From Candidatus Latescibacterota bacterium (GTDB taxonomy: Bacteria; Latescibacterota; UBA2968; GCA-2709665), in contig OZ241917.1 of assembly GCA_965203805.1 (NCBI GenBank), positions 2,368,001 through 2,432,000 of the forward strand: a DNA stretch of 64,000 nucleotides, in the 5' to 3' direction. The notes under the pieces are model-generated. The model was not told the DNA's origin and ran no database searches. It was given only the letters and a program-made list of their open reading frames with translations. This document shows positions 22,007 through 43,600 of this stretch, in pieces. The position numbers and the translations under genes were made by a program. Every line of letters starts with the position of its first letter. Position 1 is the first letter of the stretch.

Positions 22007-22216
22007 CGGACGTCGGTACGTGATGTTGTCAAGGAAGAGGTACATTGAATTTCCGGTCGGTCGAGCGTGCTTCTCACGCGACAACGTCGATTGACTTGAC
22101 CCGAAAAACTGGTATCCTGAGAGAATTGGTTGACATCGCGAATCGAATGGCGACACGGCGGCACTGCAGGTCGTTTCTGTGCCGAAGGCACGTGGATAGT
22201 TGAAAAGGAGATTTTC

Positions 22217-22417
22217 ATGCTCAACACGGCATTGGGGATCGTGAAAGATGGCAGAATCGAGACGTTGGAACGCATCTCGTTGCCCGAAGGAAAGAGGGTG
22301 CTGGTGACGATCTTGCCCGATGACGATAGTTTCTGGCAGGAAGCCAGCCGGGAAACGCTGAAGCAAATCTGGGACAATAATGAGGACGATGTATATGTCC
22401 GATTACTTGACAAATGA
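22217..22417 (+). CDS. Small antitoxin-like protein (AF2212/DUF104-like)
   Basis: AAGGAG RBS; G.VKDGRI..LE.I.LPEG..VLVT...W.N.EDDVY; overlaps the mazF-like fragment. Confidence 0.65.
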   Translation: MLNTALGIVKDGRIETLERISLPEGKRVLVTILPDDDSFWQEASRETLKQIWDNNEDDVYVRLLDK

Positions 22418-22565
22418 TATCGTTCTCGTCCGATTTCCGTTTTCCGACTTGCAGATGTCCAAAGTGCGCCCGGCCATTATTGTGAGCGGGCTCCATATTT
22501 CCCAGGATGTCTTTATTGTCCCGCTAACCAGCAGAATGACAAACCTTCTACCCGCCACGATCTGA
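22395..22565 (+). pseudogene. Truncated MazF/PemK toxin
   Basis: DIVLVRFPFSD...KVRPAIIVS...IVPLTS, then stop at 56 aa (about half length). Confidence 0.75.
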
Positions 22566-22727
22566 TCGGACGCGATCTCACGCCGGAGATCCCCCGGCGT
22601 CAGCACTGGAAGCCCGCGCTTTCCTTTTTGTTTCTGACTCTTTTCGCCATTCCGATTCAATCACTGTTCTAATGAACGATTCTCGCCGGGCTGCCGCCTT
22701 TGATGGCGAGATTGTGTGCCAGTTAAT

Positions 22728-23669: not shown

Positions 23670-23716
23670 TTGACAACGCGAATCAAAACTGGTAGTTATA
23701 TTGCAGACAATACAAC
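23670..23716 (+). promoter_or_regulatory. Probable promoter and operator of the AbrB-MazF operon
   Basis: TTGACA at 23670; imperfect palindrome GTTATATTG-CAGA-CAATACAAC at 23695-23716. Confidence 0.5.
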
Positions 23717-23732
23717 GACACGGAGGCTTCCG

Positions 23733-23987
23733 GTGAAAACCGCTCTCGTTCAAATCGGTAATTCGCGCGGCATCCGCATCCCCAAGGCGTTCCTGGAACA
23801 GTGTCACCTTCAGGACGTCGTGGAACTCGAACACCACGGCGACCATTTGATTATTCGCCCACCGACCCAACCTCGGTGCGGATGGGACGACGCCTTTCGC
23901 AACATGGGCAAACACCAGGACGACACACTAGTCGACGACCAGTCTCAGCCAGCTACCGAGTGGGACAACACGGAGTGGGAATGGTAG
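23733..23987 (+). CDS. AbrB/MazE family antitoxin
   Basis: QIGNSRGIRIPK, GWDDAF, EWEW; GGAGG RBS. Confidence 0.9.
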   Translation: MKTALVQIGNSRGIRIPKAFLEQCHLQDVVELEHHGDHLIIRPPTQPRCGWDDAFRNMGKHQDDTLVDDQSQPATEWDNTEWEW

Positions 23988-24304
23988 TTGCGCGTTTCGA
24001 CGTCTACCTGGTGCGGCTCGATCCTACACAAGGGCGCGAGATTCAAAAAACGCGCCCTTGTGTCGTAATATCGCCGGATGAGATGAACCGGCACATAGAA
24101 ACCGTCATCGTTGCCCCGATGACTACAAAAGGTCGCACTTATCCCACCCGCGTCCCCTTGCGTTTTCAGAGAAAAGTCGGACAGATCGTACTCGATCAGG
24201 TACGCACCGTTGACAAATCACGCCTGGTCCGTCGCCTTGGAAAGATTAGCGACAGGGCGGCGCTGCAGATCCTTTCTGTGCTGAAGGAGATGTTCGCGTC
24301 GTAG
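23981..24304 (+). CDS. MazF/PemK endoribonuclease toxin
   Basis: LDPTQGREIQKTRPCVVISPDEMN, LDQVRTVDKSRL. Confidence 0.92.
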   Translation: MVVARFDVYLVRLDPTQGREIQKTRPCVVISPDEMNRHIETVIVAPMTTKGRTYPTRVPLRFQRKVGQIVLDQVRTVDKSRLVRRLGKISDRAALQILSVLKEMFAS

Positions 24305-24960: not shown

Positions 24961-25599
24961 TTAAGTCACAGCCGACACGTTACCGTATGATTTTTGAGGC
25001 GCTACAACAATCGGTTCTTCTGTCTCAATAACTTCTGTATCATCCTCGACTGTATCAGTTGTAAGTTCATCGATAAAATCGACGATTTTTGCCATGTCTT
25101 TCTGATTTGGCGTTTGTCCCTGAAGATTATTGAAACTGTATAGGAAAAGTCGCAGGATATTATATAGGTAATCCTTATAGAAGGTATTCACTCCTGTATG
25201 AATAGCCTTATCTCCCTGTACCAGATCAGCTAGCTTATTAAGGTAGTCGCGAATTTCAAACACACGTTGCTTAATGGCATGTGTTGCCACAGTTTCTGTT
25301 GAATCTGTTTTGTCGGTATCCAGGATAATCGTAACGTTCATGCCCAGGGCACTTGCGTGTTTGAAAAGAAAAGGTACGCTTATTCGATGGTCAGTGCCAT
25401 CCTCCAATGCCGCAATTTCCTTTTTTGACATACCCATCTTCTTCGCCAATTGTCTTTGGGTCATGTCCTTAGAACACCGGAGCGCACATAGTGCGCTTAT
25501 GACGATTCGATCCGCTAAACGTCGCTCTAACCGGCGTACAGAAGTAGCGGAGAGATTGTCCTGTGCCATTTCTAACACCGAATTATACGGAGCGGCCAT
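24961..25599 (-). CDS. XRE-family HTH protein (HigA-like antitoxin) with long C-terminal extension
   Basis: LR...MTQRQLAKKMGMSKKEIAALEDG; overlaps the upstream toxin-like gene. Confidence 0.75.
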   Translation of the reverse strand: MAAPYNSVLEMAQDNLSATSVRRLERRLADRIVISALCALRCSKDMTQRQLAKKMGMSKKEIAALEDGTDHRISVPFLFKHASALGMNVTIILDTDKTDSTETVATHAIKQRVFEIRDYLNKLADLVQGDKAIHTGVNTFYKDYLYNILRLFLYSFNNLQGQTPNQKDMAKIVDFIDELTTDTVEDDTEVIETEEPIVVAPQKSYGNVSAVT

Positions 25600-25957
25600 T
25601 CGGTTTCTCCATTTCTAGTTTATGAATATAATCATGTCCCCAAAGGATATCGTGTTTTTGGGACTTTTTAAACCCAATGGCGATCAAATGAATCATAGAA
25701 GTCTCTAATTCCAAATAAAAGTATAATCGCGCTTCCGGCAATTTAAACGGCGCACCTCGTTGATCTACCGCGTAGAGTCCGTGACCCTCATTACGTACCT
25801 TTCCAAGCCGTACGATATTTTGAGGTCTATCAGAAATCTGTAAGGTCTCTTGCACGGTCGCTAGATTCTCAAGAAGTGCCTCCAAAGTGGCGCCATGTTT
25901 CTTACCGAATCTCTTCAATTGCCGCTGAAATTTATCCGAATGAAGAAACTCCCACAT
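25583..25957 (-). CDS. Probable RelE/HigB-like toxin
   Basis: 124 aa, basic; ARLYFY...IHLIAIGFKKSQKHDI; toxin-before-XRE gene order. Confidence 0.6.
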   Translation of the reverse strand: MWEFLHSDKFQRQLKRFGKKHGATLEALLENLATVQETLQISDRPQNIVRLGKVRNEGHGLYAVDQRGAPFKLPEARLYFYLELETSMIHLIAIGFKKSQKHDILWGHDYIHKLEMEKPNGRSV

Positions 25958-26350
25958 ACACAGAGACCCGACAATAGTCGAAATGTTCCCTTATATTGGA
26001 GTCGATTATATATGGGCAAATCTCACTTGTCAAGTCCAAATTACGACATTGTTGGACTAATGTTCCGACAATTTAGAATATAACCAGTTTGCCATCTAAA
26101 TACAACATCACGATGTATCCTCTCCAAAGGTCCCCGTCCCGTCTCCGGTTATTCTTGTAACACGCCTCCGCCAGATACAGTTCTATCCACTCATTACTAT
26201 ATCGAATCCAGTCGGAAGCCGGCATCCGCAGGCACGAACAGACCTGCCCGTCCATCATCCGTTTTTCTGACTGACCACTGACACTGATCACCGACCACTG
26301 CTGCTTCACTCCTTGTCCTGATGGAAGATTCCCAGCGTGCCGATCAAGCC

Positions 26351-26527
26351 TCAGTCAGTATCCTGATCGGCGAAACGGCGGTCCATCTCAGCCCAGTGAG
26401 CGAGCTGCTCGGGGGTGGGGACGGGCATACCGGCCTTGCGGTAGTCTTCCGGCGAGTAGGGCGTCCCGTCCGGATGCCAGCACTGGAAAGCGGCGGGCTG
26501 CTGGCGATTTCGGATATCTTTCGGCAT
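26351..26527 (-). CDS. Small protein A, 58 aa, absent from the ORF track: MPKDIRNRQQPAAFQCWHPDGTPYSPEDYRKAGMPVPTPEQLAHWAEMDRRFADQDTD
   Basis: Translated by hand; paralogous to the two upstream small ORFs; ATG 5 nt after the repeat. Confidence 0.75.
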   Translation of the reverse strand: MPKDIRNRQQPAAFQCWHPDGTPYSPEDYRKAGMPVPTPEQLAHWAEMDRRFADQDTD

Positions 26528-26655
26528 AAGCAGTTCTAATCCTTTCTCTGATGGAAGATTCTCGCCGGGAATGACGGCAGAATCCAGCAGCGGGGAGGGA
26601 GATCCTTCCAGGTGACCAAATTCTATGAGGTGGAGCTGATGTATCCGACACGGGA

Positions 26656-26841
26656 TTAACCGAAGTAACGGGCCTTGATCTCCGCGATCGTCCGATCCAT
26701 CCGGTCCCGGTGAGCCCGGTGCTCAGGCGTCGGGACGGGCATCCCCGCCTTGCGATAGTCCGCATCGGAATAGGGGGTTCCATCCGGATGCCAGACTTCA
26801 AAGATCTTCGGACCTTCTCGATTTTGGAAATCCTGTGGCAT
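26656..26841 (-). CDS. Small protein B, 61 aa: MPQDFQNREGPKIFEVWHPDGTPYSDADYRKAGMPVPTPEHRAHRDRMDRTIAEIKARYFG
   Basis: Shares WHPDGTPYS..DYRKAGMPVPTPE with protein A, with synonymous codon differences; ATG 5 nt after the repeat. Confidence 0.75.
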   Translation of the reverse strand: MPQDFQNREGPKIFEVWHPDGTPYSDADYRKAGMPVPTPEHRAHRDRMDRTIAEIKARYFG

Positions 26842-26910
26842 AAGCAGTTTCAATCCTTTCTGTGATGGAAGTTTCTCACCGCGTATTTTCTCGTGGAGCT
26901 TGATTGAGGA

Positions 26911-27084
26911 CTAGCGGTCTTCGCTGGCGCGTTCATGGTCCTGTTCAGCCCACAAGGCCATTTGCTCAGGGATGGGGACGGGGAGGCCGATACGGCGGTA
27001 GTCTTCCGGGGTGGCCGGTGTGCCGTATGGACGCCAGACGCGCCACGGGCCGCCGGTTTGTTTGTTGTGCTTTGGTGTGGTCAT
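26911..27084 (-). CDS. Small protein C, 57 aa: MTTPKHNKQTGGPWRVWRPYGTPATPEDYRRIGLPVPIPEQMALWAEQDHERASEDR
   Basis: W.P.GTP..PEDYR..G.PVP.PEQ.A.WAE.D motif; ATG 4 nt after the repeat. Confidence 0.72.
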   Translation of the reverse strand: MTTPKHNKQTGGPWRVWRPYGTPATPEDYRRIGLPVPIPEQMALWAEQDHERASEDR

Positions 27085-27149
27085 ATCGGTTTCAGTCCTT
27101 GTTTTGATGGAAGATTCTCGCCGGGAATTCACTCGGCATTGCTACGTCT

Positions 27150-27485
27150 TCAGTTGGAAGCCCTGGGTACGGGCGTGGCGACGGGCTTGTCCGTCCGGTA
27201 GTACTGGCTTCGACGTCCTACGATATGGGCCCTGCCCTGTTCGACGGCATCAAGGTCGAAATTGCCCGATCCATGGTCTCGGATAAACGACCGGGCCAGG
27301 ATGCGGCCGCGCGGTGACAATTTCAGGTGCCGGAACAACTCGTCGACCGTCGCGTCGCTGGCAAATTCGCCCCGCATCGTGTTAACGGCTACCGCCTGGA
27401 GCCGGGACAGGTACGCGACTTCGTCCATGTGTTTACGGACGCCGTATTTGCCCTTCCTCGGCTTATCTATGACGAATCTGGGCAT
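27150..27485 (-). CDS. Hypothetical protein D (111 aa) between repeats 4 and 5 of the mini-array
   Basis: GC3-rich ORF, co-oriented with A-C, ending 24 nt before the next repeat; no recognisable family. Confidence 0.5.
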   Translation of the reverse strand: MPRFVIDKPRKGKYGVRKHMDEVAYLSRLQAVAVNTMRGEFASDATVDELFRHLKLSPRGRILARSFIRDHGSGNFDLDAVEQGRAHIVGRRSQYYRTDKPVATPVPRASN

Positions 27486-27723
27486 AGAGCGGACCCCAAT
27501 ATCGGGTTGCCTGTACGGCTGCGCTGCTGGTCTCTCCGGTCACACGGTCCCGGGTGTTTTCGAGGGAACGCTCGCCGCCAGGAAGCGAGCTCTCGTCAAA
27601 CCCCAGCTTATGATTGTTGTTTCAATCGTTGTACTGATGGAAGATTCTCGCCGGGCGTGGCGATACGGGCGGCTTTGGACATCAACCGGCGAAGCGAATG
27701 GGCTGTGAACCCGAGGCCGGTTG

Positions 27724-28326
27724 TCATGCACGGTCCCGGTACTCTCCTTCACAATACCTGCGAATTCTCAACCCAAGCTCGCGCGCGTTTCGCTTGGACC
27801 AGAATCGGAAGTGCTTAACATATAGGAGTTCGCACGGGAGGTCCTTCCCCTGTAGCAACTCGGCAGCGTCCTTGCCGTGGGCAATCACCAGCCTGGGCGC
27901 GATCTGGCGCAAGAGATAGTCGAAGGAAGTCGAGATCTTGCTTCGCTCGTCCAGGTCCGATGCCTGATTAGTCGCTTTCGCGTAGACATTCGTCTCGAGG
28001 CATTTGACGGGACTGGCGCCCGAGACGACCTCCTCGATGATTCTTCGTGTGTTGCTTACTTCATTCCTTCTCTTTCTTCCGGGTTTCAGCGGGCGAGACC
28101 TTCGCTCCTCCTTGTACTTCTCGAACCACGCGCGTTTGTCGAATCCATAGCTGTCCGACCAGAAATCCCAGAAATCAACCGACATGCGGCTCGCGGGATT
28201 GATACCAACGAGGAACACATCGCAATCAAGCGGCGAACCCTCGCACACGAACGGACGCAGATCGGTCGGCCTGCCGATCAGAGATGCCAGGCCAAGGCTG
28301 AACTCGTGCAAGCTACTCGTTTCCAT
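27724..28326 (-). CDS. Uracil-DNA glycosylase-like superfamily protein
   Basis: VFLVGINPA (motif A-like), ETN, PRLVIAHGKDA, VKHF; GAGG RBS. Confidence 0.6.
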   Translation of the reverse strand: METSSLHEFSLGLASLIGRPTDLRPFVCEGSPLDCDVFLVGINPASRMSVDFWDFWSDSYGFDKRAWFEKYKEERRSRPLKPGRKRRNEVSNTRRIIEEVVSGASPVKCLETNVYAKATNQASDLDERSKISTSFDYLLRQIAPRLVIAHGKDAAELLQGKDLPCELLYVKHFRFWSKRNARELGLRIRRYCEGEYRDRA

Positions 28327-28739
28327 TTTAGTCTTCCTCTCATTGATGTTCCAGGCCTATTCAGATTTATCCTCTCGGTTGACAGGAGTCGGCCGCCAGC
28401 CACAATCGGAATTCCGGATGTAGTGACAATAACTTAATCGTGCTTTGGCAGTCGAGAAACGCACCGGCTGTCACGCAGTGTGAATCCATACAAAAACACC
28501 GGCATAATGCCGGTCTCAGTCAATCGAAACAGTCTTGATAAACCTTCGGAAGGTAACGGAAAGTTCAATGCCCGTCGCGACTTTGGGCGGTGGATTACTG
28601 GAGAACAGATCTGGAACTCACGAGGTCGCCACCATGAACAAATGGATTTGGGTCAATCACCGGAGGTTGTAATGCTGATGCTTCTCGGTTTATCTCTAAG
28701 TTGTAGACAGATCGAACCAAGGAAACAGGTGCAGTGTAT

Positions 28740-29318
28740 CTACGTTGCGCTGACGTTCGAATCTGACCCCTGCCGCAGATATTCGTATCCACGTAGATTG
28801 GCCGTTTTTTTTGCAATTTTTTCAATTATCGATATTCTCGTCGACCTGGACGATAAATTAATCCCCAGTGCCTCGCCAATTTGCCTCAGCATTGAAATGT
28901 CGTACTTTTTTCGATCGGCCAAAGTGAGCTCGATATCTGACGACGTCAACCCTTTTAATTCTTCTGCTATAACCCTTGCATCCTCGCGGCTCTGTGCAGA
29001 ATAGGCATTGCGTGCGGTCTTCTTCGTCCCCTTGTTTCGTGATGACAGACCCAGAACTGACGAAAGCACAGGATCTGACTCTGCGACGCGTACACAGTCC
29101 TTGATAGATTCGATGGTCGATGTAACGCCTTCAACGTCTTCCCCTGCAGGAAGTGACCTTAGCCTTATCTGGAAATCTCTTAGGAACTTAATCAAGACCT
29201 CCAATTCTTGGTCAAGTCGATGTTTTGTCTCCTCCGTGGGCAAGGCGTCAACCAACTCGGACAGCCTGCTGAGAAAGTTGTCCAATTTCCTTCCGGTCAA
29301 TCTTACTGAATTGCTCAT
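28740..29318 (-). CDS. Hypothetical helical protein translationally coupled to ParA
   Basis: TAATG overlap at 29318; C-terminal LRQIGEALGI...IIEKI helix-extension-helix-like segment. Confidence 0.7.
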   Translation of the reverse strand: MSNSVRLTGRKLDNFLSRLSELVDALPTEETKHRLDQELEVLIKFLRDFQIRLRSLPAGEDVEGVTSTIESIKDCVRVAESDPVLSSVLGLSSRNKGTKKTARNAYSAQSREDARVIAEELKGLTSSDIELTLADRKKYDISMLRQIGEALGINLSSRSTRISIIEKIAKKTANLRGYEYLRQGSDSNVSAT

Positions 29319-30259
29319 TATTGAAATCTCTCCAGAAGTTCGTCGACGACTCGGGGATACTCCTGCTTGCCCGTCGCCCGCCTGGCGTTTTCAGAGTCAT
29401 GCAACCATATGGGCAGACTGTTTTCGGCAGCTTCAGTGTATCCGATCAATTCAGTCGTGTGGGTTGAAAAGCACTTGTCCCGGCCCAACTGCGACCGAAT
29501 TCCCTCCATTGTATTCGCATGGGCATTAGCGATCATTTCACCCCCGATTCGCACACGAACGAAAAGAACTGCGCCGAACTCAGCTACACGATGACTGTCC
29601 GCAGTTTCACCGGCCAATGCACCCGCATGCGTCATACGTTCGTCGATATCCCGGACTTTGTTTGTTAAAATGCTCAATCCAATTGTAGAAAGATGATCCG
29701 GTATCGCGGTCACAATGTAGTAGTCACTCGCGATAAGCGCGTTCTGCGTCATCAAATACAAATTCGGCGGGCAATCTATCAGAACAAAATCGTAATTGTC
29801 ACGGACTTCGTTGATGGCTTTAACTAGGAATTCCCGGTCTCGCATGGCCTGTTGTGCGTTCTTCCTCAGCATTTCCATACTTGGATATGCTCCTGAGATC
29901 TGCCCTCCGCCAATGTCCTCCCCTATCAGATCAATATCGCACGGGATCAAATCCAATCGTGGGTGACGGCGCCCGTCCCTTAAACGAATTGGAGTCTCCC
30001 ACAGATATCTCTTAACGTCAATGGGTTTCCTGTCCAGAAATCTCTTATACATAGTGGCAATTGTGCCAACTCTGGATTTCCGCCTTTTCCAGTCTTCAAT
30101 GGAAGCACATAGAAACGTAAGGTTTGTCTGTGGATCGATATCGATCAGCAAGACCTTCTTCTCTCTTAGTCCGGCAAGCCAACATCCGACATGGTAGGCT
30201 GATGTCGTCTTTGCGACGCCACCTTTGTAATTGATAAACGCGAAAACCTTTGCTGCCAC
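29318..30259 (-). CDS. ParA/Soj-family ATPase
   Basis: INYKGGVAKTT deviant Walker A, VLLIDIDPQTNLT, YDFVLIDCPPNL. Confidence 0.9.
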   Translation of the reverse strand: MAAKVFAFINYKGGVAKTTSAYHVGCWLAGLREKKVLLIDIDPQTNLTFLCASIEDWKRRKSRVGTIATMYKRFLDRKPIDVKRYLWETPIRLRDGRRHPRLDLIPCDIDLIGEDIGGGQISGAYPSMEMLRKNAQQAMRDREFLVKAINEVRDNYDFVLIDCPPNLYLMTQNALIASDYYIVTAIPDHLSTIGLSILTNKVRDIDERMTHAGALAGETADSHRVAEFGAVLFVRVRIGGEMIANAHANTMEGIRSQLGRDKCFSTHTTELIGYTEAAENSLPIWLHDSENARRATGKQEYPRVVDELLERFQ

Positions 30260-31060
30260 TAATTATGCCCCCAAGCAGACAACCGCATATTGCGATCTTC
30301 AGCTATATTCGGAACAGAAGATCGATGCTACTGGTCGGTTCATCTTGACAGCGTGGCATGCACCCGTGAATGACTGGCAAACCTAAGGCGCACAGCGCTT
30401 TGACTGCGATTAATTACGAGCCAGGTGTCAGCAAGCCGAAAGCGTATCCGTTGGAAATCTCGTTCAATGCACGACACTCCCATACGTTTGAGTCCCGAGG
30501 ATCACTTTTAACGAACTGACCACCTCTAACCTTCAAATATATGGCATTCGATGGGCGGAAGGCAACCTCATTTCCGTTTCTGTCACTTACTCTGAACGGC
30601 AGCTGTTCCTTCAAGTGGCGAATAGTTCCCGCAACCAGACATTTGCTTCAGGGATCCCGCATGCGTCGAACACGAATTCCTGTCCGGGGCTTACCGTGTT
30701 GAGGTATACCCATGGTTTGCGGCGGTCCCAAAGTTTCCTATTGTAGTGGTGGCTTAGGATTGGACAACCGCCCGGCGGATAAAATCACGACGGCAGCCTC
30801 CATCTGCTGCGATTCGCCGATCGCGGCGCCGTCAACGTGAAACGGTCGCCGTCGCCGGAAAAGAGGGCTGCGCAGTTCACCGAGTTGAATTACTTGCGCC
30901 TGAAGACGATCTTCATCGATTCTCCGCCTTTCCAGTTTCATTTCGGTTCTGATGACCCACGGAATCCAGGCGGAAGTCGGCATCCTCCGGCACGCAAATT
31001 CCCGCCCATGCATGATCCGTTTTGCTGACTGGTCACTGACACTGATCACCGACCACTGCC

Positions 31061-34000
31061 GCTGCAATCCTTGTTCTGATGGAAGATTCTCTCTGAGATG
31101 AGCAGATCGAAAAACGGCCCGGTGTGTATCACGGGTTTCAATCCTTGTTCTGATGGAAGATTCTCTCTGAGTGTTCGTCGGGCAACATCGTCCGCCCCAG
31201 ACCTTCCTGTTTCAATCCTTGTTCTGATGGAAGATTCTCTCTGAGTCTCCGTGGACGGGTTGATGTTCTGTCTTTGCACGTGTTGTTTCAATCCTTGTTC
31301 TGATGGAAGATTCTCTCTGAGTCCACGTCGGCATCCAGTTCGATACCGAGATAATGTGGTTTCAATCCTTGTTCTGATGGAAGATTCTCTCTGAGAAGTC
31401 CGCCCCAGATATAACCCCAATATACCCACGTGTTTCAATCCTTGTTCTGATGGAAGATTCTCTCTGAGACGGCGAGCCCAACTATCGCGCCGAAGAAGGT
31501 GACTCCAGTTTCAATCCTTGTTCTGATGGAAGATTCTCTCTGAGCGCTTAGAGCGTCTCTATTGCGTTCTGCGATACCGGTTTCAATCCTTGTTCTGATG
31601 GAAGATTCTCTCTGAGCGCGTAATAAAGCGCTTCACCACCGTCAAAGCCTTCCGGTTTCAATCCTTGTTCTGATGGAAGATTCTCTCTGAGAATCGGGCG
31701 GCCCGTCTTTTACGCGTACAACAACAGTTTCAATCCTTGTTCTGATGGAAGATTCTCTCTGAGACATCACATCTTCAGGATCACCGAGTGTGGCGATCTG
31801 TTTCAATCCTTGTTCTGATGGAAGATTCTCTCTGAGCCAAGCGTTGGCGCGGGCCACGCCGTCGACGGACTCCATGTTTCAATCCTTGTTCTGATGGAAG
31901 ATTCTCTCTGAGCGCAAGGGGTTCCCCGAGCACCAGGCCCTGATTTAGTTTCAATCCTTGTTCTGATGGAAGATTCTCTCTGAGTTCGAATGATACCGAT
32001 GACCTCCCATTCTGAAACCTTGTTTCAATCCTTGTTCTGATGGAAGATTCTCTCTGAGCACTGACCGGCGCGGATGCTGTTATCAGCACGGTGATGTTTC
32101 AATCCTTGTTCTGATGGAAGATTCTCTCTGAGTCCGGACAGCGCCGCGCGGTCCGCCTGCAGCGAGCGGAGTTTCAATCCTTGTTCTGATGGAAGATTCT
32201 CTCTGAGCGATCCCGGCTGAAGGCGTTGCGTGGTTGATTCCCAGGGTTTCAATCCTTGTTCTGATGGAAGATTCTCTCTGAGCGGCGCACGGCCCGCGAA
32301 CAGCAGGCCCTGATCGAGTTTCAATCCTTGTTCTGATGGAAGATTCTCTCTGAGCAGGGGGCGGACGTTTGCATGCTCCGGGAGTATGCCATGTTTCAAT
32401 CCTTGTTCTGATGGAAGATTCTCTCTGAGAGGCAGGGCTCGGGATTTGCACGGACCAACGTTGCAGTTTCAATCCTTGTTCTGATGGAAGATTCTCTCTG
32501 AGTCCAGATCGTATCGAACAGCGGCGAGCCATTCTTTTCGTTTCAATCCTTGTTCTGATGGAAGATTCTCTCTGAGCGGAGGCCGGGAATATCACGGCGC
32601 GGACGCTGGCGAAGTTTCAATCCTTGTTCTGATGGAAGATTCTCTCTGAGACGTCGTGCAGCTCTGTTATCCGACGTCGGAAGCCCTGTTTCAATCCTTG
32701 TTCTGATGGAAGATTCTCTCTGAGAGTGCGCCGTATGCGGTTATGTCAAGTGCAGGTGCCGTTTCAATCCTTGTTCTGATGGAAGATTCTCTCTGAGGTG
32801 AGGAACGGCGGAACAGACCACCCCAGACATAACCCGTTTCAATCCTTGTTCTGATGGAAGATTCTCTCTGAGACCCGGAACAGGAACCGGGTGACAAAGG
32901 TATCGAGGTTTCAATCCTTGTTCTGATGGAAGATTCTCTCTGAGACCCGGAACAGGAACCGGGTGACAAAGGTATCGAGGTTTCAATCCTTGTTCTGATG
33001 GAAGATTCTCTCTGAGATATGACCGCGAACCATATCACGACGTCGGTATTTAGTTTCAATCCTTGTTCTGATGGAAGATTCTCTCTGAGCACAAAGGCGA
33101 AAGCTACGGATGATAGCTTTGAACCTGTTTCAATCCTTGTTCTGATGGAAGATTCTCTCTGAGCGGTGCCGGATGCGCCGGCGAGGCCCGTCGCTTTCGC
33201 CCGGTTTCAATCCTTGTTCTGATGGAAGATTCTCTCTGAGTTCTGTATCCGCCGTCTGACGGATGGCCTGACGTGCTGTTTCAATCCTTGTTCTGATGGA
33301 AGATTCTCTCTGAGCATTCAGCGGTTGGGCCGCGTCATACGCGCCTTCTACGGGTTTCAATCCTTGTTCTGATGGAAGATTCTCTCTGAGGTAGGAAGCT
33401 GCTTTGGTCCCACTGTCCACACGGTCCAGTTTCAATCCTTGTTCTGATGGAAGATTCTCTCTGAGTGTTGAAAGTCTCCCCGTCCCCGAAACCCTGGCTA
33501 TCCGTTTCAATCCTTGTTCTGATGGAAGATTCTCTCTGAGCGCGCTGCAGTTCGGCCTTGTGGAAGTTCGCGGCTGTGTTTCAATCCTTGTTCTGATGGA
33601 AGATTCTCTCTGAGCCTGGTTCCTGCGGGCCCTGTTCTGCCGGGTGAAAAGTGTTTCAATCCTTGTTCTGATGGAAGATTCTCTCTGAGCCGGTCTGGGG
33701 AGTCGATTGAGAGGCTGGTTTGCGAATGTTTCAATCCTTGTTCTGATGGAAGATTCTCTCTGAGCGGGGCGGTTGAGCGTTGTCATCGCCGCTATCGACA
33801 AAATGTTTCAATCCTTGTTCTGATGGAAGATTCTCTCTGAGGAAAAGCACCTGTGGCGCACCGCCCGCATTTTGGCCGAGTTTCAATCCTTGTTCTGATG
33901 GAAGATTCTCTCTGAGTTTTTGCGGCTCCCGCCGAAGGTTGTTGACCAGATCATGTTTCAATCCTTGTTCTGATGGAAGATTCTCTCTGAGTAACAGTGG

Positions 34001-35847
34001 GGGATTCGCTGGCAAGGCCCCAAACGCCTGTTTCAATCCTTGTTCTGATGGAAGATTCTCTCTGAGCTATTCGCATCGCTTCGCGCAAGCGGTGGTTATT
34101 TACGTTTCAATCCTTGTTCTGATGGAAGATTCTCTCTGAGCGTCTCGAGGTGGTCACGGTCGTACTACATCGATGCCGTTTCAATCCTTGTTCTGATGGA
34201 AGATTCTCTCTGAGTGAAGGTCGCGCAGCTTTATGCGTACCGCGAGGGGGTCGTTTCAATCCTTGTTCTGATGGAAGATTCTCTCTGAGAGCTTACGCTG
34301 AAGCGATCCCAGGCAATCACAGCCTCGGTTTCAATCCTTGTTCTGATGGAAGATTCTCTCTGAGGATCATGACGCCGGGAAGCGCATTCGATATCACGAT
34401 GTTTCAATCCTTGTTCTGATGGAAGATTCTCTCTGAGCGGCGCCGTCGTCGACGTCCTCCGCGATGCGCCCACCGTTTCAATCCTTGTTCTGATGGAAGA
34501 TTCTCTCTGAGGCACGGGCGCGAATCAATTAGAGCCTCTCAGGTCGATGTTTCAATCCTTGTTCTGATGGAAGATTCTCTCTGAGTAGTCGAGCACATCC
34601 AGGCAGGAGAGTATGCATGGGACGTTTCAATCCTTGTTCTGATGGAAGATTCTCTCTGAGTCTGGGAGTATGTCATGGAGGGTGCATTGATCCGCGTTTC
34701 AATCCTTGTTCTGATGGAAGATTCTCTCTGAGGGCCTCCAGATGCGCCGGTAACCGCCGGCGGTTCTTGTTTCAATCCTTGTTCTGATGGAAGATTCTCT
34801 CTGAGCGCCGTAGGAGATTTTTGTGAGTCTTCAGGGAGAGAGTTTCAATCCTTGTTCTGATGGAAGATTCTCTCTGAGATCGTGGCGGGTGAAAGTGCAG
34901 CGTGTGCGACGTGTCATGTTTCAATCCTTGTTCTGATGGAAGATTCTCTCTGAGTGAGCTACCCGCCAAAATCGTCAAGTATGCTTCTTTAGTTTCAATC
35001 CTTGTTCTGATGGAAGATTCTCTCTGAGCCTGTCAGGCGTTGTGCGATACGAGCTAACGGTTTACGGGGTTTCAATCCTTGTTCTGATGGAAGATTCTCT
35101 CTGAGCGGGCGCGGTTCGCCCGGATTCTCAAATGCTTAGAGTGTTTCAATCCTTGTTCTGATGGAAGATTCTCTCTGAGTCTCGTCCAGTTCGAGGGCGC
35201 GGACGTGTGCATGTGTTTCAATCCTTGTTCTGATGGAAGATTCTCTCTGAGCATGGGGGGCCTCTGATGCTGAAGAACTTAACGCCTCTGTTTCAATCCT
35301 TGTTCTGATGGAAGATTCTCTCTGAGCTATCACAGACGGAACTGTCACAACTACAGATGATGGGTTTCAATCCTTGTTCTGATGGAAGATTCTCTCTGAG
35401 CTTGAATATAAGCGGCCAACACACGGCCAAAATTGAAACCGTTTCAATCCTTGTTCTGATGGAAGATTCTCTCTGAGGATCTGGCCGACGTCGGCGGTCC
35501 TGGCGTGTTCCGGATGTTTCAATCCTTGTTCTGATGGAAGATTCTCTCTGAGTTCTCGTCCAGTTCGAGGGCCAGGACGTGTGCATGCTGTTTCAATCCT
35601 TGTTCTGATGGAAGATTCTCTCTGAGGGTCGAATGTCATTTCCCCGACTACAGGACTAAGGCGTTTCAATCCTTGTTCTGATGGAAGATTCTCTCTGAGA
35701 GCAATGGCTATTATTGCAGGTTCGGAAGATATAGCGTTTCAATCCTTGTTCTGATGGAAGATTCTCTCTGAGGTACCCTGCTCACTGGCTATTCGCTCAA
35801 TCCGGTTAGCGTTTCAATCCTTGTTCTGATGGAAGATTCTCTCTGAG
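31061..35847 (-). CRISPR. CRISPR array, about 65 repeats and 64 spacers; repeat as transcribed CTCAGAGAGAATCTTCCATCAGAACAAGGATTGAAAC (37 bp)
   Basis: Identical repeats at ~74 bp period (hand count); the ATTGAAAC 3' end, a degenerate terminal repeat at 31061 and an AT-rich leader next to cas4 give minus orientation. Confidence 0.98.
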
Positions 35848-36018: not shown

Positions 36019-36615
36019 TCAGACACAGATATTTCTATAACAACAGTCCCCACATTTGACACGATGAGGTGTTTTTCTGGGCAGACGTCCAGTCTCAATG
36101 ATGTCGAGGATCTCAGCCACAGCAGTCTTTGCTGCGCTTTCTTCGGCCTCGCCAATGGGGACTTCGACCAACCGACTGCCACCGCGCACGTACGCTATGT
36201 AACCACGCGTTACCGATTTTCGATAGACTTCGCGGGCGAGAAGCCCATAGAGAGTAATTTGGATTCGATGAGTCTTGAAAGCATTCTCTCGATAGGGCGT
36301 ATACTTGTAATCGAGCGGTGCAAACGTCCCATCGTGCAATGTCAGGACTTCATCGACAACCCCACGGACACTTAGCGCGGGTGACGCCAAATACACGTTG
36401 AGATCTCTATCTACGGCACCGATTTTCTTCCGCAGGTAGGATCGGTTTTCGCGTTCCCTGCGTTTGTGGACTTCCCGCCCCTTGAGCACCTTGAAGCGCC
36501 GGTCCTCAAACTGCGGGATATTAAGCACGTTCATGAAATACGTGAAACGGGGACAATAGACGTGCTCGATCACCTCCGAAGGCGTGATCATGATTGTCGT
36601 TTCGGTGTCGCTCAC
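36019..36615 (-). CDS. cas4: CRISPR-associated Cas4 nuclease
   Basis: YCPR, GVVDE, PLDYK, QITLY, C-terminal CxxCCYxxxC. Confidence 0.93.
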   Translation of the reverse strand: MSDTETTIMITPSEVIEHVYCPRFTYFMNVLNIPQFEDRRFKVLKGREVHKRRERENRSYLRKKIGAVDRDLNVYLASPALSVRGVVDEVLTLHDGTFAPLDYKYTPYRENAFKTHRIQITLYGLLAREVYRKSVTRGYIAYVRGGSRLVEVPIGEAEESAAKTAVAEILDIIETGRLPRKTPHRVKCGDCCYRNICV

Positions 36616-36917
36616 AGGAATAGACTCTTTACTTCGTCGGTGACCAGTTTCTGGTCAAACGCCTGGCCTTGTAGTACGACTTTGCGGAAGTCCATGGCGC
36701 ACATGGGGAAAATATACACGCTGTCGGTTTCCTCATCTATGTGTTCCTCAATACGCATCGAGAGTTCATCCAGCCGGTTGTGTTTGACCGTCCCGAGAAA
36801 GACGGACTTTTGTACTCGGTAGAGGCCGGCTTCTTGACAGGCTTTGCCCACCTTCCGCCGACCCTTGTCGGCTGAGATATCGTATAGGACCCAGGTAAGG
36901 GATTCGTCAGATTTCAT
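36612..36917 (-). CDS. cas2: CRISPR-associated Cas2
   Basis: VLYDIS, RVQKSVFLG, DSVYIFP. Confidence 0.95.
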   Translation of the reverse strand: MKSDESLTWVLYDISADKGRRKVGKACQEAGLYRVQKSVFLGTVKHNRLDELSMRIEEHIDEETDSVYIFPMCAMDFRKVVLQGQAFDQKLVTDEVKSLFL

Positions 36918-37912
36918 GTTCTCATCTCTTTGGTGTTCGGATCGTTGGCAAGCAGTTTATTAGCGATGCGGTGCAGATCGAATTGTATGCTGTCGCGCCG
37001 AGTGATGTTTCGGCCCCGGTAGCGGGTGGCTTCGTCGAGATACGTCGTGAACGCTTCGATGAGGACGGCCTTGCCCTGTTTGTTCAGTGTGAGTCCATTT
37101 TGGAGGTTGTCGAACAGGTCTTTTTTGATCTTGCGCGCAGAGAAAAGTCCAAGCACCGTCTCGTCCGCCCAAATCCGGTATTGCTCGATAAGGTCAAATA
37201 CAAGGGATGGTTTGTTGTAGTGATCGGTATGAATGAACCCAATGTATGGATCGAGTCCGGCGAGCAAACAGGCTCGTTCGACCGTACCATACAGGATGCC
37301 ATAGGCATAATTGAGCAGGCAGTTGAATGGGTCTTTGGCCGGATTGCGGCTCCGGCCTTCAAACCGGTAGTGGATTGGTAAGAGTAATGATACAGCCGAC
37401 CAGTAGGTTCGTCCGGCACGCCCCTCCAGGCCGAGAAGGCTCTGGCGTGCGGAATCAATTTTTCCTGTGACGTCCTGCGTTTGATCTTTGAGCGTCTTTA
37501 GACTACCGATCGCTTCGGTCAGCTGCGCTGAAAGGCGCGTCCGACGATCGCGCATGCGCGCCAGCAGCGCAATCTGGTTGTCAAATTTGCGCTCCACCCA
37601 GCCGAGGGCAAGCCGCATGCCAAGGTCGGTTTCCGCGGCCGCAAATTGCATTCGTCGTATCGCGGTTGTTGAACCTGGTCGGCCGTGCCACACCCGACCG
37701 AACGGGTCGCCGTACTTGTCCAGAAAGAGGATGTCGATATTCTTCTCAACAGCAAGTTGCACCGCATCGGACGAGAACGCCGCGCCCGTTGAAATCAGAA
37801 TGGAGCGTACCTTGCGAGCGGAGATTTCGGTCGATTGTCCATCAACTTTGATGTTGAACAATTCCCCGCGCCGGCTCAGATACGCACCGAATGTGTTGAG
37901 TACGAGTTGCAT
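36914..37912 (-). CDS. cas1: CRISPR-associated Cas1
   Basis: LGLEGRAGRTYW, DPFNCLLNYAYGILY, GLDPYIGFIH, SLVFDLIE; ATG 37912 overlaps the cas3 stop. Confidence 0.96.
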   Translation of the reverse strand: MQLVLNTFGAYLSRRGELFNIKVDGQSTEISARKVRSILISTGAAFSSDAVQLAVEKNIDILFLDKYGDPFGRVWHGRPGSTTAIRRMQFAAAETDLGMRLALGWVERKFDNQIALLARMRDRRTRLSAQLTEAIGSLKTLKDQTQDVTGKIDSARQSLLGLEGRAGRTYWSAVSLLLPIHYRFEGRSRNPAKDPFNCLLNYAYGILYGTVERACLLAGLDPYIGFIHTDHYNKPSLVFDLIEQYRIWADETVLGLFSARKIKKDLFDNLQNGLTLNKQGKAVLIEAFTTYLDEATRYRGRNITRRDSIQFDLHRIANKLLANDPNTKEMRT

Positions 37913-40218
37913 TAGAATAGCCTTAAAGCAACGTCTGCAGCGAAGCGTCCGCCTAAGTGTGAGTCGTATTCCATTTCGCAGAACGAAAACAAGCCGTCTC
38001 CTTCTCTCAAGTAGTGTTTTTTTATATACCACAAAGGCATTTTTAACTCGTAAAGCCGTCGATCCTTGGGATCCGCCAAACCTATTACATCGTCCTTGAA
38101 TTCGTGAGGAATGACGCTTTGTTGTTCGTAATTGGAGACCCGAGTACTCCGTCGCTCATCGTGACCACGTACGGGATCTAAAATACCCGAAAAGCGCCTC
38201 TGATCTTGCATTACGGTTTGCTGGGCAAGGATGAAATCCTCGTGTGTATTAATCTCAGTATGGGCATAAATGCTCTCTACCAAATCAAGCAGATCCTGTT
38301 CGGTTAGCCGCCTGTTGTCCATATCTGCAAATGCACGGAAACTACGGTTTAAGAGAGCCTGTTCCGCGCTCTGCTCAATATGCATATTATCGAAATATAT
38401 CCTTTCCGAGCCAGGTCCTGGACGAAAGATGACGACCTCACCATCACGCCTCCTCTTTCGGTTGACTCGTCCTGCCCGTTGCGCTAGCGCGTCGGGGGGC
38501 GCGCATTCGGTAAAAAGCACATCAAAATCAATATCTAGAGCGACTTCTACCACTTGTGTCGCAATCAACAGCGTAGGCTCTTTATTTAAAATAAACTCCT
38601 CTTTGTCTTGTCTGTCTTTGAGAATAAACTTGGAGTGATAACAGACAGGCTGAAGCTCTTCAAGAGCTTCGGCTAATTCTTGACATCGTCTCACGGTATT
38701 TACCACTACCAAGACTCGTTTTCCGACAATGACCTTATCCCGGATCAGGTCCAATCTATCGAGAAGATCGCCGTCAACAACCCGGAACAAACTTCTGGAT
38801 TCTTGCAGCAACTCGTGATCTCTGACGACCTCCGTATGTGCCGATTCCTCTAGCGCAGTCATTAGACTGCATTCCAAGAAACGAGGCAAAGTCGCGCTCA
38901 TAACCATGAATCGTGCTCCGGCGGCTCCCAACTGTTCAATAGCTTTGAATATTAGGCCCGCCGTATAGGGATCGTATGCATGAATTTCGTCCAGAATAAT
39001 TGCGGAGTCACAGGCGGCAAACGCCTTAAGAGGCCACAGTCCTGCATGAAACAAAGTCGTCAAAAGTTGATCAACGGTCCCTACTGTCACGGGTGGGATA
39101 AAATGGCGGTCAAAGAGCGCACGCGAACGCACGTCCTCTCTGCCGTCGCCGACTGCATCATCCATCTGAGCTTGCTCTCGCCGGTTTACTAAATCCGCCA
39201 TTGAGTGCGTCAGACCGACTGGGTGACCATAAGAAGAAAAAAACTGACGCATCCGTTCATACAAACTGTTCGCCGTTACCATGGTAGGAAGGAGGTAGAG
39301 GATTTTTCCAACGTGACCTTGTTCCACCTGCCCCAATGCCCACAGCAAGGCTGCTTCCGTCTTGCCGATGCCCGTAGGCGCGACTGCGACTACATGGCCG
39401 TCTATACTTCCACAAGTACGTTGGAAATCACGAAACTCCGAAAAAACCCAGCCTTCGCGTTTGCCTTTTTCTATCAGATAGGAATAGACTTTTTTAGGGC
39501 CTACATCTACAGTAAATCGGTAATCGAAGCTGTGCGCCGAAGCGTGCCAATCGGCATTTATCAATAGTCCCTTCATCAGGATAAACAACGCTCGGACAGC
39601 GTCGATGTCTGTCACCCTTCTTTTCAAGCTACTAACGAAGGACGGTCGCTTTTTCGCCAGCTCGCTACACTTCTCGTAATCCAATGTCGGAGGGCAAGCA
39701 CCGAAATCGTCAAAGATCTTCTCGACGACACGTTGCCCTTCTTCAATGCCCCCTTCAACCCATGTAAGAGCACCAGGGTTTTTGCCCTCGCGCTCGAAAC
39801 GAGTCAATTCTCCATCAACCGGTTTGTGATGGCCGAGAACTACCATCGCTTCCGTTACTCCCGTGCAGATAGCTTCGGTCAATTGGCCATGAGTCTGTCG
39901 CAAATTGCGGGCCGCTAGAAAAACAAAGGCAGTAGATGCGTATTCATGGCGAAAATTGGCTTTGATGGCTCTCTGTCTATCAACCTCAGAGGAGGCGTAC
40001 ATAATGCGTTGGAAATTCGCCGATAGCTTGCCCATATCGTGAAAAGCTACACACAAAAGGCTGCTTAGCAGAAAGCGATCTCGGTCTATGCTGTGGCGAT
40101 CACATAGTCGATTGATCGCACCGCTGTGTCTATCGATCAATTGCCTCCAAGCCAAATAGACGCTCCAAACGTGCTGCTCGTACGTTTCATCGGGCCTGCA
40201 CTTAGCGAGAAAGATCAT
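37912..40218 (-). CDS. cas3: Cas3 HD nuclease-helicase
   Basis: HD motif FHDMGK, GHH, ADWHAS, APTGIGKT, DEIH, MSAT, QRAGRVNR. Confidence 0.96.
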   Translation of the reverse strand: MIFLAKCRPDETYEQHVWSVYLAWRQLIDRHSGAINRLCDRHSIDRDRFLLSSLLCVAFHDMGKLSANFQRIMYASSEVDRQRAIKANFRHEYASTAFVFLAARNLRQTHGQLTEAICTGVTEAMVVLGHHKPVDGELTRFEREGKNPGALTWVEGGIEEGQRVVEKIFDDFGACPPTLDYEKCSELAKKRPSFVSSLKRRVTDIDAVRALFILMKGLLINADWHASAHSFDYRFTVDVGPKKVYSYLIEKGKREGWVFSEFRDFQRTCGSIDGHVVAVAPTGIGKTEAALLWALGQVEQGHVGKILYLLPTMVTANSLYERMRQFFSSYGHPVGLTHSMADLVNRREQAQMDDAVGDGREDVRSRALFDRHFIPPVTVGTVDQLLTTLFHAGLWPLKAFAACDSAIILDEIHAYDPYTAGLIFKAIEQLGAAGARFMVMSATLPRFLECSLMTALEESAHTEVVRDHELLQESRSLFRVVDGDLLDRLDLIRDKVIVGKRVLVVVNTVRRCQELAEALEELQPVCYHSKFILKDRQDKEEFILNKEPTLLIATQVVEVALDIDFDVLFTECAPPDALAQRAGRVNRKRRRDGEVVIFRPGPGSERIYFDNMHIEQSAEQALLNRSFRAFADMDNRRLTEQDLLDLVESIYAHTEINTHEDFILAQQTVMQDQRRFSGILDPVRGHDERRSTRVSNYEQQSVIPHEFKDDVIGLADPKDRRLYELKMPLWYIKKHYLREGDGLFSFCEMEYDSHLGGRFAADVALRLF

Positions 40219-40946
40219 CGAGGTACCAGTGTAATTCGGTCGTAGCCTGGGCCTAGGATTTTGGTACTTAGACTAAAGCCCTTGATTGGGTCTTTAACTT
40301 GTATCGGATGGCCGATATAGGTAAAAAACTCCCGTCCGACAATCGTACGTCGCTCGCCTTCAAAACTGAAGCGTACAGGTAGATTGAACACTTGGGGCGC
40401 ACGTATTGACTCAGTGAGAGGTAGCTCTAAGACGGATTTATCTGCTTCGTATGCTCCTGTAATATCCTGAGGCACTGCACAAAAATGGACCGATTCTATT
40501 GGTTCCCAATCTGCCTCCGATAATCCGACGGAGCACAAGACGAGCAGGCTATCGCTGTGACCAGCGGTAAGCGCATATACCGGGTCGTTGAACGCTTGGG
40601 CAATTCGCTGAGCAGTGGATTCTTCTTCAGCACAGTACCCTAGACCAATAGATAGATCGACAACATATTCCCTTAGTATAACATCTGAGATCACTTCCCC
40701 GGACTTCACTTTGCGGTACTTCCAGAGGTCCTTAAAGGTGCCGCGATCTCTACCCCCGACGCCAACGAGGATGTTATACTCCTCAACGAACTGTTGACTC
40801 TCCTCCATACCATACCCGAGTGCCGCCCCTAGCAATCCGATACAGCTTGTATAGGACGGAAGGGGTAGCGTTTTATGGAACGTATGTGTTTCAGGTAGGC
40901 GAAAAGAGGCGGTTTCCGCGAATGCCTGGATCAATACTAGATGCAT
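40215..40946 (-). CDS. cas5: Cas5 (type I-B)
   Basis: ASFRLP...TLPLPSYTSCIGLLGAALG, PVYALTAG. Confidence 0.92.
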   Translation of the reverse strand: MHLVLIQAFAETASFRLPETHTFHKTLPLPSYTSCIGLLGAALGYGMEESQQFVEEYNILVGVGGRDRGTFKDLWKYRKVKSGEVISDVILREYVVDLSIGLGYCAEEESTAQRIAQAFNDPVYALTAGHSDSLLVLCSVGLSEADWEPIESVHFCAVPQDITGAYEADKSVLELPLTESIRAPQVFNLPVRFSFEGERRTIVGREFFTYIGHPIQVKDPIKGFSLSTKILGPGYDRITLVPR

Positions 40947-40949
40947 GCC

Positions 40950-43597: not shown

Positions 43598-43600
43598 CGC

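Follow-up and report, generated by a model that had tools for sequence, protein, structure and literature searches.

Genes of a small-protein family begin directly after degenerate CRISPR repeats in Candidatus Latescibacterota: a putative repeat-borne translation start linked to Cas6b

CRISPR repeats that lie outside arrays are already known as sources of small regulatory or inhibitory RNAs. In Myxococcus xanthus, a gene for a small protein, devI of the DevI/DevTRS system, goes together with a cas cluster of type I-B-like make-up, and its expression is held back by Cas proteins; this control is a transcriptional autoregulation, and devI is not known to be preceded by a CRISPR repeat. Here, we analyzed a 64,000-nt stretch of DNA from a Candidatus Latescibacterota bacterium (assembly GCA_965203805.1, contig OZ241917.1, positions 2,368,001 to 2,432,000; hereafter the window), in which three paralogous open reading frames (ORFs A, B and C) start a few bases past degenerate CRISPR repeats next to a type I-B CRISPR-Cas locus. 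Two roles of the repeat are considered, that of ribosome-binding site (RBS) of these genes and that of target of the processing enzyme Cas6b.

The repeat-ORF units of the window resemble CreA (of CreTA), CreR and the Shmakov et al. (2023) mini-arrays in being degenerate copies of the resident repeat outside the array, near I-B cas genes, under selection and with recognition by Cas6 expected. In the sections of PMC10120712 that describe them, however, those elements are non-coding and have 15-60-nt spacers that pair with promoters, whereas the intervals of the units measure 193-493 nt and are coding, with a repeat that abuts the start codon. RNA anti-CRISPRs (Racrs, solitary repeat units), as introduced in the corresponding parts of PMC10651486, are likewise solitary repeat mimics that Cas6 can bind and process, and they can yield long Cas7-coated RNAs. 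They are described there as non-coding and borne by viruses or plasmids, whereas the units are chromosomal, fused to ORFs and without viral or plasmid relatives in the collections searched. In Cas6f/Csy4 mRNA control (PMC4604432) and in MORTISE (PMC13478208), a Cas6 site in the 5' region of an mRNA alters translation or stability, as is proposed here. Those sites are engineered hairpins, whereas the units contain a natural, unstructured I-B repeat on which the action of Cas6b is putative. By descent the units belong with the ectopic degenerate repeats (CreA, CreR, crlRNA mini-arrays, Racrs), yet they fail each class's defining features, be it the short non-coding spacer that targets a promoter or the carriage by viruses or plasmids; by analogy, they would work most like a natural version of the engineered Cas6f/Csy4 leader sites. 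A full-text literature search returned no account of CRISPR repeats with protein genes fused to them or with such genes in the place of spacers, although the supplementary element lists of PMC10120712 might include cases, and no description of this small-protein family. As far as the text of PMC10120712 sets out its search, that large survey of repeat-like elements left out elements overlapping ORFs and spacers >60 bp. Array finders and searches for 15-60-nt spacers miss coding mini-arrays.

Small-protein genes between degenerate repeats

Five degenerate repeats (R1-R5) were found ~3.4 kb beyond the end of the trailer of the main array and on the same strand as the array (Table 1). In minus-strand reading the repeat of the main array is CTCAGAGAGAATCTTCCATCAGAACAAGGATTGAAAC; 64 of its repeats are identical, the terminal repeat has 2 mismatches, and the spacers are 35-40 nt long. 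R1-R5 differ from this repeat by 5-8 mismatches out of 37 and are separated by 493, 205, 277 and 193 nt; with these intervals and degenerate repeats the mini-array fails the canonical definition of a CRISPR array. The Rfam model CRISPR-DR7 matched array repeats and R2, the repeat before C, on the minus strand with scores below the gathering threshold. The junctions of repeat, linker and start codon read GAAAGGATTAGAAC-TGCTT-ATG for A, GAAAGGATTGAAAC-TGCTT-ATG for B and CAAGGACTGAAAC-CGAT-ATG for C, exactly as given in an earlier note on this DNA. The change of AC to GA that the note had reported for the repeats before A and B was found in both, and the sole Shine-Dalgarno (SD)-like sequence lies, as it had stated, inside the repeat, since the linkers TGCTT and CGAT are without a purine-rich run.

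R5 and the following 100 nt match the main array's terminal repeat and trailer (30962-31089; duplicate family D7) at 85% identity, so that the cluster resembles the end of a second array with genes as spacers. The ATG of ORF D, in contrast to those of A, B and C, lies 130 nt beyond R1 and is thus not fused to a repeat; a homologue of D sits between two repeats in locus L005. When the 5.87-Mb genome was scanned with the 37-mer at <=12 mismatches, 71 matches were obtained, namely the 65 array repeats and the copies at 27619, 27089, 26847, 26533, 26303 and 22654. All were within the window and on one strand, and no match was present on the opposite strand of the genome. With all copies on one strand and in the window only, the association of repeats and ORFs is not due to chance. 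The copy at 22654 precedes a relic family member, the two forming a unit at 22600-22690, and the relic ends in TGA where the conserved Trp codon is expected.

The same fusion was observed in relatives. At 10 of 12 loci from species-representative genomes labelled as Latescibacterota, Gemmatimonadota and Binatia metagenome-assembled genomes, the ATG of the homologue directly follows a repeat-like sequence; a further repeat is usually present ~180-220 nt on, and at every locus the repeat-like matches are all on the strand of the ORF. With loci of the same order added, the family was examined at 41 distinct places, of which 28 have an I-B-like repeat (<=8 mismatches out of 31) just upstream, and 25 of these show an in-frame ATG 2-5 nt past the repeat. 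The linker measures 2 nt at one place, 3 nt at two, 4 nt at 14 and 5 nt at eight, and none is longer than 5 nt. The remaining three of the 28 are a frameshifted half-gene, a copy at the end of a locus and one copy without ATG. The 13 places without an I-B-like repeat comprise one with a type I-C repeat, three with very degenerate repeat-like stretches, three second halves of broken genes and six with none; one repeat-less member has its own AAGGAAGG near the ATG. Since repeat-ATG fusion is present in all five protein subfamilies, it is older than their divergence.

The I-C case was found in locus L013, where an I-C-type array ends in a slightly degenerate repeat (GTCGCCCCCCACGCGGGGGCGTGGATTGAAAC) and a family member has its ATG 5 nt past this terminal repeat, with GGAG 11 nt ahead of the ATG. 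This ORF terminates at the TGA of another I-C-like repeat, and I-B-like units come next; I-B and I-C repeats have the end GGATTGAAAC in common. Genes outside the family also start at such repeats: in L007 the ATG of ZacA lies 1 nt past a degenerate repeat whose 3' end is changed to AAGAGAGGACAC, and in L009 and L013 a PEMT/ICMT-type membrane protein starts with GTG at +0 after a degenerate repeat. The repeat family is common throughout the order; it was found in 25 of 168 genomes of the phylum and in 12 of the 14 other genomes of the genus, as arrays in some and as scattered copies in others.

Sequence comparison firmly establishes A, B and C as real genes of a family of ~58-aa proteins. A profile built from A, B and C retrieved 40 representatives with E<=0.001 among 1.84 billion proteins and 22 protein clusters at the 90% identity level. 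The members are nearly all 55-75 aa long and have the common motif W(H/R)PDGTP..S..DYR.AG.PVPTPEQLAHWAE, in looser form W(H/R)PxGTP...DYR..G.PVPTPEQ; the nearest relatives of ORF A are 84-93% identical and come from other metagenome-assembled genomes. Within the family the pairwise ratio of non-synonymous to synonymous substitution rates (dN/dS) is mostly 0.05-0.3, at dS values from 0.3 to >2, and this low ratio together with the 22 clusters identifies A, B and C as genuine genes. The family is nearly confined to the genus of the window (12 of 14 other genomes and the window's own, 13/15); outside it, one of two genomes in a sister genus has a member, and none was found among 21 genomes of a genus that carries the identical repeat in arrays. 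A metagenome scan added only L016 and a weak L018, while L017 and L019 were rejected as large unrelated proteins with only WHPDGTP in common.

ORFs A-D gave no match in Pfam, NCBIfam, PADLOC or PHROGs, and the family homologue P0020 no usable match in the ESM Atlas. The sole PDB profile match covers 20 residues of the N-terminal domain of the bacterial type IB topoisomerase 2f4q (E 7.5e-4) and is a lead only. The longer profile matches P0041, P0045 and P0049 were discarded, as they carry unrelated domains and the resemblance looks like short repeat motifs. No homologue was present in 2.9 million viral contigs, 50,697 phage records and 72,556 plasmid records. Several members (L004 9960, L013 9358-9561, L032, P0029 and P0039) run into the downstream repeat, where they either stop at the repeat TGA (C-terminal ...FHQNKD) or use another repeat frame (...ESSIRTR...); a Cas6 cut in the downstream repeat would then take away their stop codon. 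Loci L005 and L010 are labelled Gemmatimonadota, and their units are identical or nearly identical to units of genomes placed in the window's genus (e.g. L037 from G053), a placement at variance with these labels.

That the units act as crRNA-like guides (CRISPR RNA, crRNA) of the CreR, CreA or crlRNA kind, in which the repeat and the first bases of the ORF would direct Cascade to repress a promoter by partial complementarity, is very improbable. Guides of this kind are frequent among degenerate repeats close to I-B cas genes, and in the passages of PMC10120712 that define the published class its spacers are 15-60 nt long and do not overlap ORFs. The 'spacers' of the window measure 193-493 nt and encode conserved proteins, and the first 36 nt after each unit repeat had no match of >=10 nt to the cas-proximal intergenic DNA of the window; on these grounds a role as crRNA-like regulator was rejected.

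Conservation of the repeat and the ribosome-binding site

Mean pairwise identities were calculated over 23 units. Identity was 0.28, a random level, in the 30 nt upstream, 0.62 in nt 1-12 of the repeat and 0.83 in nt 13-37. For codons, AAGGA and tag, 22 of the 23 units were used, one truncated ORF being left out. Positions 1, 2 and 3 of the 26 most conserved codons had identities of 0.76, 0.76 and 0.47, whereas AAGGA, the best-conserved part of the repeat, reached 0.90 and the 8-nt tag at the repeat end 0.85. With 0.83, nt 13-37 of the repeat thus surpass the first two codon positions of the protein core. The 3' 25 nt of the repeat keep 72-96% identity in pairs with saturated synonymous sites. 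Repeats that precede a family ORF have on average 3.7 mismatches (n=22) as compared with 5.1 for the other solitary copies in these islands (n=34; one-sided Mann-Whitney p 0.016, with kin counted as independent and copies listed to 9 mismatches). This sequence conservation firmly identifies the repeat as a selected cis element that is fused to the start codon.

Apparent conservation could also arise by gene conversion among copies, if the solitary repeats were junctions of repeat-mediated cassette shuffling in a defence island, with AAGGA and the closeness of the ATG incidental or secondary. The 34 additional solitary repeats beside unrelated genes (ZacA/DUF6361, the PEMT/ICMT-type membrane protein, UDG-like) and the duplicated terminal repeat and trailer are in line with such scars, and the shared GGATTGAAAC would permit exchange between I-B and I-C repeats. 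We regard this explanation as unlikely, because conservation stops sharply at the repeat edge and because, in cross-genome pairs that have no array to convert against, change in the 3' 25 nt is much slower than at synonymous sites. Moreover, the linker is held at 2-5 nt in 25 of 28 places though its sequence varies, and SD-strengthening changes arose within the repeat.

The 16S gene of the window's genome ends in GGATCACCTCCTTTCT, of which the last part is ...CACCTCCTTTCT, and SD motifs are clearly enriched upstream of its gene starts (3007 crude starts). Use of AAGGA is highest when the gap measures 7 nt (66 of the 3007); it continues to exceed background at gaps of 11 and 12 nt, with 11 and 10 starts, and one start is left at a gap of 13. 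GGAG, GAGG or AGGA lies upstream in 1198 of the 3007 starts, leaving ~60% without. In the units, AAGGA, seven further repeat bases and the linker result in gaps of 9-12 nt, the longest linker (5 nt) giving 12. As no linker is longer, AAGGA stays within 12 nt of the ATG, where the genome's use of this motif ends. AAGGA stands 11-12 nt ahead of the ATGs of A, B and C, a distance at the margin of those used in this genome and a long spacing, as the earlier note had remarked. The linkers vary in sequence and contain no purine run.

Ahead of A and B, the variant AGAAAGGA has its complement in the stretch UCCUUUCU of the 16S tail, and the predicted duplexes with this tail amount to -10.2 kcal/mol for A, -10.1 for B, -4.9 for C and -5.4 for the canonical repeat, compared with medians of -5.9 for genes and -3.9 for random sequences; A and B rank in the strongest 14% of gene upstream regions. 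The note had pointed to the purine-rich GAAAGG of A and B, and with this variant the predicted pairing, -5.4 kcal/mol otherwise, indeed reaches about -10. Four other units have this change, or GGGGA, as well: L002_9959, L009_9960, L005_10182 and L013_9391. No sigma-70-like site was found at the units. Judged from these alignments and pairing predictions, the repeat offers the sole SD at hand and bears marks of having been tuned as one, and on balance it probably constitutes the translation start region. The earlier proposal of the repeat as RBS holds in so far as the repeat is selected, is the only SD candidate and keeps AAGGA at 0.90; it is weakened by the modest pairing of the canonical AAGGA and by its late spacing.

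Cas6b and the expression of the repeat-linked genes

In the processing experiments of PMC3479195, I-B Cas6b enzymes acting on 37-nt repeats leave an 8-nt 5' tag, AUUGAAAC, as determined there by RNA-seq and in vitro assays. The same tag forms the last 8 nt of the window repeat, which by analogy places the expected cut between AAGG and ATTGAAAC, the position that the earlier note had assumed. The 3' 25 nt of R2-R4 differ from the array repeat at 2-4 positions. Upon folding, the repeat was essentially unstructured, with z-scores of the unit repeats from -0.3 to +1.1.

The distribution of Cas6b was compared with that of the ORF family. A Cas6b homologue was found in only 3 of 15 genomes of the genus, as opposed to 13 of 15 for the family. 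Five chromosome-level relatives gave no match to Cas6b, as protein or Pfam profile, or to Cas6_C; three of them have Cas1 and two of these also Cas5d, which indicates I-C-type systems. In the other two no Cas6b, Cas6_C, Cas5d or Cas1 match was obtained, and their units are intact: between L007_9960 and L009_9960 dS is 1.57, dN/dS 0.07 and repeat identity 0.80. Purifying selection without Cas6b argues that expression of the ORFs cannot depend on Cas6b, and persistence without Cas makes it unlikely that the products are toxins held down by Cas. A CreTA-type addiction module is, by this indirect test, at odds with the intact units, still under purifying selection, of genomes that yielded no Cas1, Cas6b, Cas6 or Cas5d. 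The earlier note had suggested that loss of Cas6 switches the ORFs on. The part 'on without Cas6' fits the persistence in genomes lacking Cas6b, while a toxin or addiction version is unlikely.

These genomes also bear on the opposite logic, raised in the note as well, in which Cas6b cuts a long transcript into stable monocistronic mRNAs with short AU-rich leaders and is needed for good expression. The transcript would stem from read-through of the array or from the UDG-like operon, and the arrangement would be a natural counterpart of synthetic Csy4 insulators. Repeats stand on both sides of each ORF in a spacer-like manner, an array on the same strand lies upstream of the units in the window, L006 and L013, and SD-independent initiation is common, to judge from the ~60% of starts without GGAG, GAGG or AGGA. 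Csy4 sites in mRNAs alter stability and translation (PMC4604432). We nevertheless consider activation by processing improbable, since ORFs and repeats are under purifying selection in genomes without detected Cas6b, Cas6, Cas5d and Cas1, degeneration has gone further in repeats standing only after an ORF than in those standing before one, and the linker length is capped at the SD limit.

The small acidic proteins might instead be protein anti-CRISPRs, encoded in a cassette whose Racr-like RNA decoys soak up Cas6b and Cas7 and which is part of a selfish or mobile island, able to settle at arrays by repeat homology. Several tandem small ORFs without assigned function, ParA-like and HTH genes in the island and the duplicated terminal repeat and trailer bounding the cluster would suit this, as would the loss of the matching array and Cas6b from most unit-bearing genomes. 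According to the relevant parts of PMC10651486, Racrs mimic repeats, are processed by Cas6f and form aberrant Cas7 filaments. This is nevertheless improbable: the family has no homologue in the viral, phage and plasmid collections and no PHROG match, and the island occupies a syntenic chromosomal site. The window also retains the full I-B operon and, with three intact units close by, 64 identical repeats, and the ORFs stay under selection in genomes that offer no I-B system as a target of inhibition.

From the observed architecture, coding status, repeat selection, genome SD usage and persistence without Cas6b we derive a coding mini-array with a repeat-borne SD and translation tied to Cas6b, an explanation to which we assign, as a whole, a probability of roughly 45%. 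The RBS activity of the repeat, the cutting of the copies R2-R4 by Cas6b and the direction of its effect are parts that we infer. A, B and C would each be packaged as an over-long 'spacer' (R1-D-R2-C-R3-B-R4-A-R5), and the repeat would be kept as the 5' untranslated region of each gene, its end 2-5 nt ahead of the ATG. Without Cas6b, translation would proceed from the repeat-borne AAGGA site and the genes would be on by default. In a host with I-B Cas6b the expected cut would leave a 12-13-nt leader with a crRNA-type 5' tag and the SD removed. How strongly the small proteins are translated would thereby be linked to crRNA-processing activity, most likely in an inverse way. The role of Cas6b as a negative switch is itself putative, and we put it forward only tentatively. 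That CRISPR repeats were domesticated as switchable 5' leaders, forming a sensor of CRISPR failure that turns on back-up functions, is a far-reaching and rather unlikely extension; the small proteins, and in some relatives ZacABC, would then be translated only when the processing enzyme or Cascade is absent or blocked. This would amount to a natural Cas6-gated translational switch, with protein genes able to live as 'spacers' of a CRISPR array.

Several observations weigh against this explanation. The canonical AAGGA is weak, as its -5.4 kcal/mol is close to the gene median and at the 34th percentile of random 25-mers, and its gap before A, B and C lies 4-5 nt beyond the optimum. SD function alone would lead one to expect linkers of 0-1 nt as opposed to the 4-5 nt observed; besides SD distance, another factor holds the ATG a few bases past the repeat. 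The entire 25-31 nt of the repeat are conserved, far beyond what an SD needs, and many solitary island repeats, some well kept, precede no family ORF (34 copies). The repeat is conserved even where no Cas6b was detected, which the proposed mechanism leaves unexplained; recent loss, an unbinned replicon, frequent exchange of islands or another binding factor are possible reasons. The tag is altered in the repeats of A (two changes) and C (one change), while that of B keeps ATTGAAAC. The type I-C enzyme leaves an 11-nt tag, which would retain the GGAG of the I-C repeat in L013, so that removal of the RBS by cleavage is not general; this I-C fusion could, moreover, have arisen by recombination in the shared GGATTGAAAC without selection.

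The surrounding island and the meaning of the repeat-linked genes

The units are part of an island that follows a syntenic block with genes for an ABC ATPase, an MBL hydrolase and YbjQ. Recurrent members of the island are two UDG-superfamily-like genes and the genes of a ParA-like ATPase, its 192-aa partner and an HTH protein (Table 1).

Table 1. Positions of the repeats, genes and neighbouring features in the window and, where a locus is named, in relatives
Feature	Position	Strand	Remarks
Main CRISPR array, 65 repeats of 37 nt	31061-35847	minus	AT-rich leader at high-coordinate end beside cas4
Type I-B cas operon, complete	36019-44275	minus	
cas6b	43601-44275	minus	
cas8b-like	41870-43597	minus	
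cas7	40950-41873	minus	
cas5	40215-40946	minus	
cas3	37912-40218	minus	
cas1	36914-38032	minus	
cas4	36019-36615	minus	
R1, degenerate repeat	27619-27655	minus	CCCGGCGAGAATCTTCCATCAGTACAACGATTGAAAC; 5/37 mismatches; first in coding mini-array
ORF D, 111 aa, no family assigned	27150-27485	minus	between R1 and R2
R2, degenerate repeat	27089-27125	minus	5/37 mismatches; CRISPR-DR7 30.4 bits; 8-nt tag ACTGAAAC
ORF C, 57 aa	26911-27084	minus	ATG 27084, 4 nt (CGAT) past R2 end
R3, degenerate repeat	26847-26883	minus	AGAAAGGA variant; tag ATTGAAAC intact
ORF B, 61 aa	26656-26841	minus	60% identical to A; ATG 26841, 5 nt (TGCTT) past R3
R4, degenerate repeat	26533-26569	minus	AGAAAGGA variant; tag altered to ATTAGAAC
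ORF A, 58 aa	26351-26527	minus	ATG 26527, 5 nt (TGCTT) past R4
R5, terminal-type repeat, and trailer	26204-26339	minus	repeat 26303-26339; closes the series
Relic unit	22600-22690	minus	repeat 22654-22690 with 9/37 mismatches, 3-nt linker, ATG and 16 codons
UDG-superfamily-like gene 1	27724-28326	minus	directly upstream of R1; Pfam E 8e-4, below cut-off
UDG-superfamily-like gene 2	44781-45338	minus	Pfam E 2e-3, below cut-off
ParA-like ATPase (AAA_31) and 192-aa partner, no family assigned	28740-30259	minus	between array trailer and units
X1 (P0061), 182 aa	L007 12682-13230		N-terminal Cys-rich motif, no family match; directly upstream of unit
Complete ZacA-ZacB-ZacC candidate defence operon (PADLOC)	L007 13505-19795; L013 7920-9131		after repeat-ORF unit

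The two UDG-like genes, which are distinct, stand on either side of the CRISPR-Cas locus, and in relatives they turn up again next to repeat-ORF units. R1 begins 68 nt past the stop of gene 1, no terminator-like site was found between this gene and the units, and co-transcription is possible. As an obligate partner gene 1 was rejected, for only 8 of 22 family genomes have it. The ParA-like gene and its partner (~80% and 72% identity) keep their position in relatives, at 4155-5665 in L006 and 8144-9660 in L009, and a terminator-like hairpin follows these genes at 28498-28514. X1 belongs to the island in most relatives, lies directly upstream of repeat-ORF units in 8 loci and has homologues in 12 of the 14 other genus genomes; it is absent from the window's genome. 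It was considered as a substitute repeat-binding factor and set aside, as it co-occurs with Cas6b (G052, G054) and is present in two family-less genomes, without a clear pattern.

Further features were noted in and around the locus. Two consecutive repeat-spacer units of the array (32836-32979) are 100% identical and thus contain a duplicated spacer. Between the second UDG-like gene and cas6b, two weak repeat-like stretches (44445-44540, minus strand) start 59 nt apart; they have 8 and 9 mismatches out of 25 to the 3' part of the repeat, a weak resemblance, as 3.8% of shuffles reach <=9, and might be a degenerate regulatory mini-array as reported upstream of cas6 in I-B loci. Just past the trailer copy a sigma-70-type promoter matches at 12 of 12 positions (26005-26033, minus strand) and precedes the stretch 24961-25957 with a 124-aa ORF and an HTH_3 protein. 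By eye only, the label of toxin-antitoxin pairs was given to the ORFs at 22130-22565 and 23670-24304.

In the present case CRISPR repeats are fused to the start codons of conserved protein genes, under strong selection, with two repeat types and in many genomes, and the finding draws attention to a family of small proteins, as yet uncharacterised, that goes with CRISPR loci. Were the repeat ribosome site and Cas6 target at once, it would provide a natural post-transcriptional link from the state of the CRISPR system to the production of other proteins, a counterpart of the engineered Csy4 switches.

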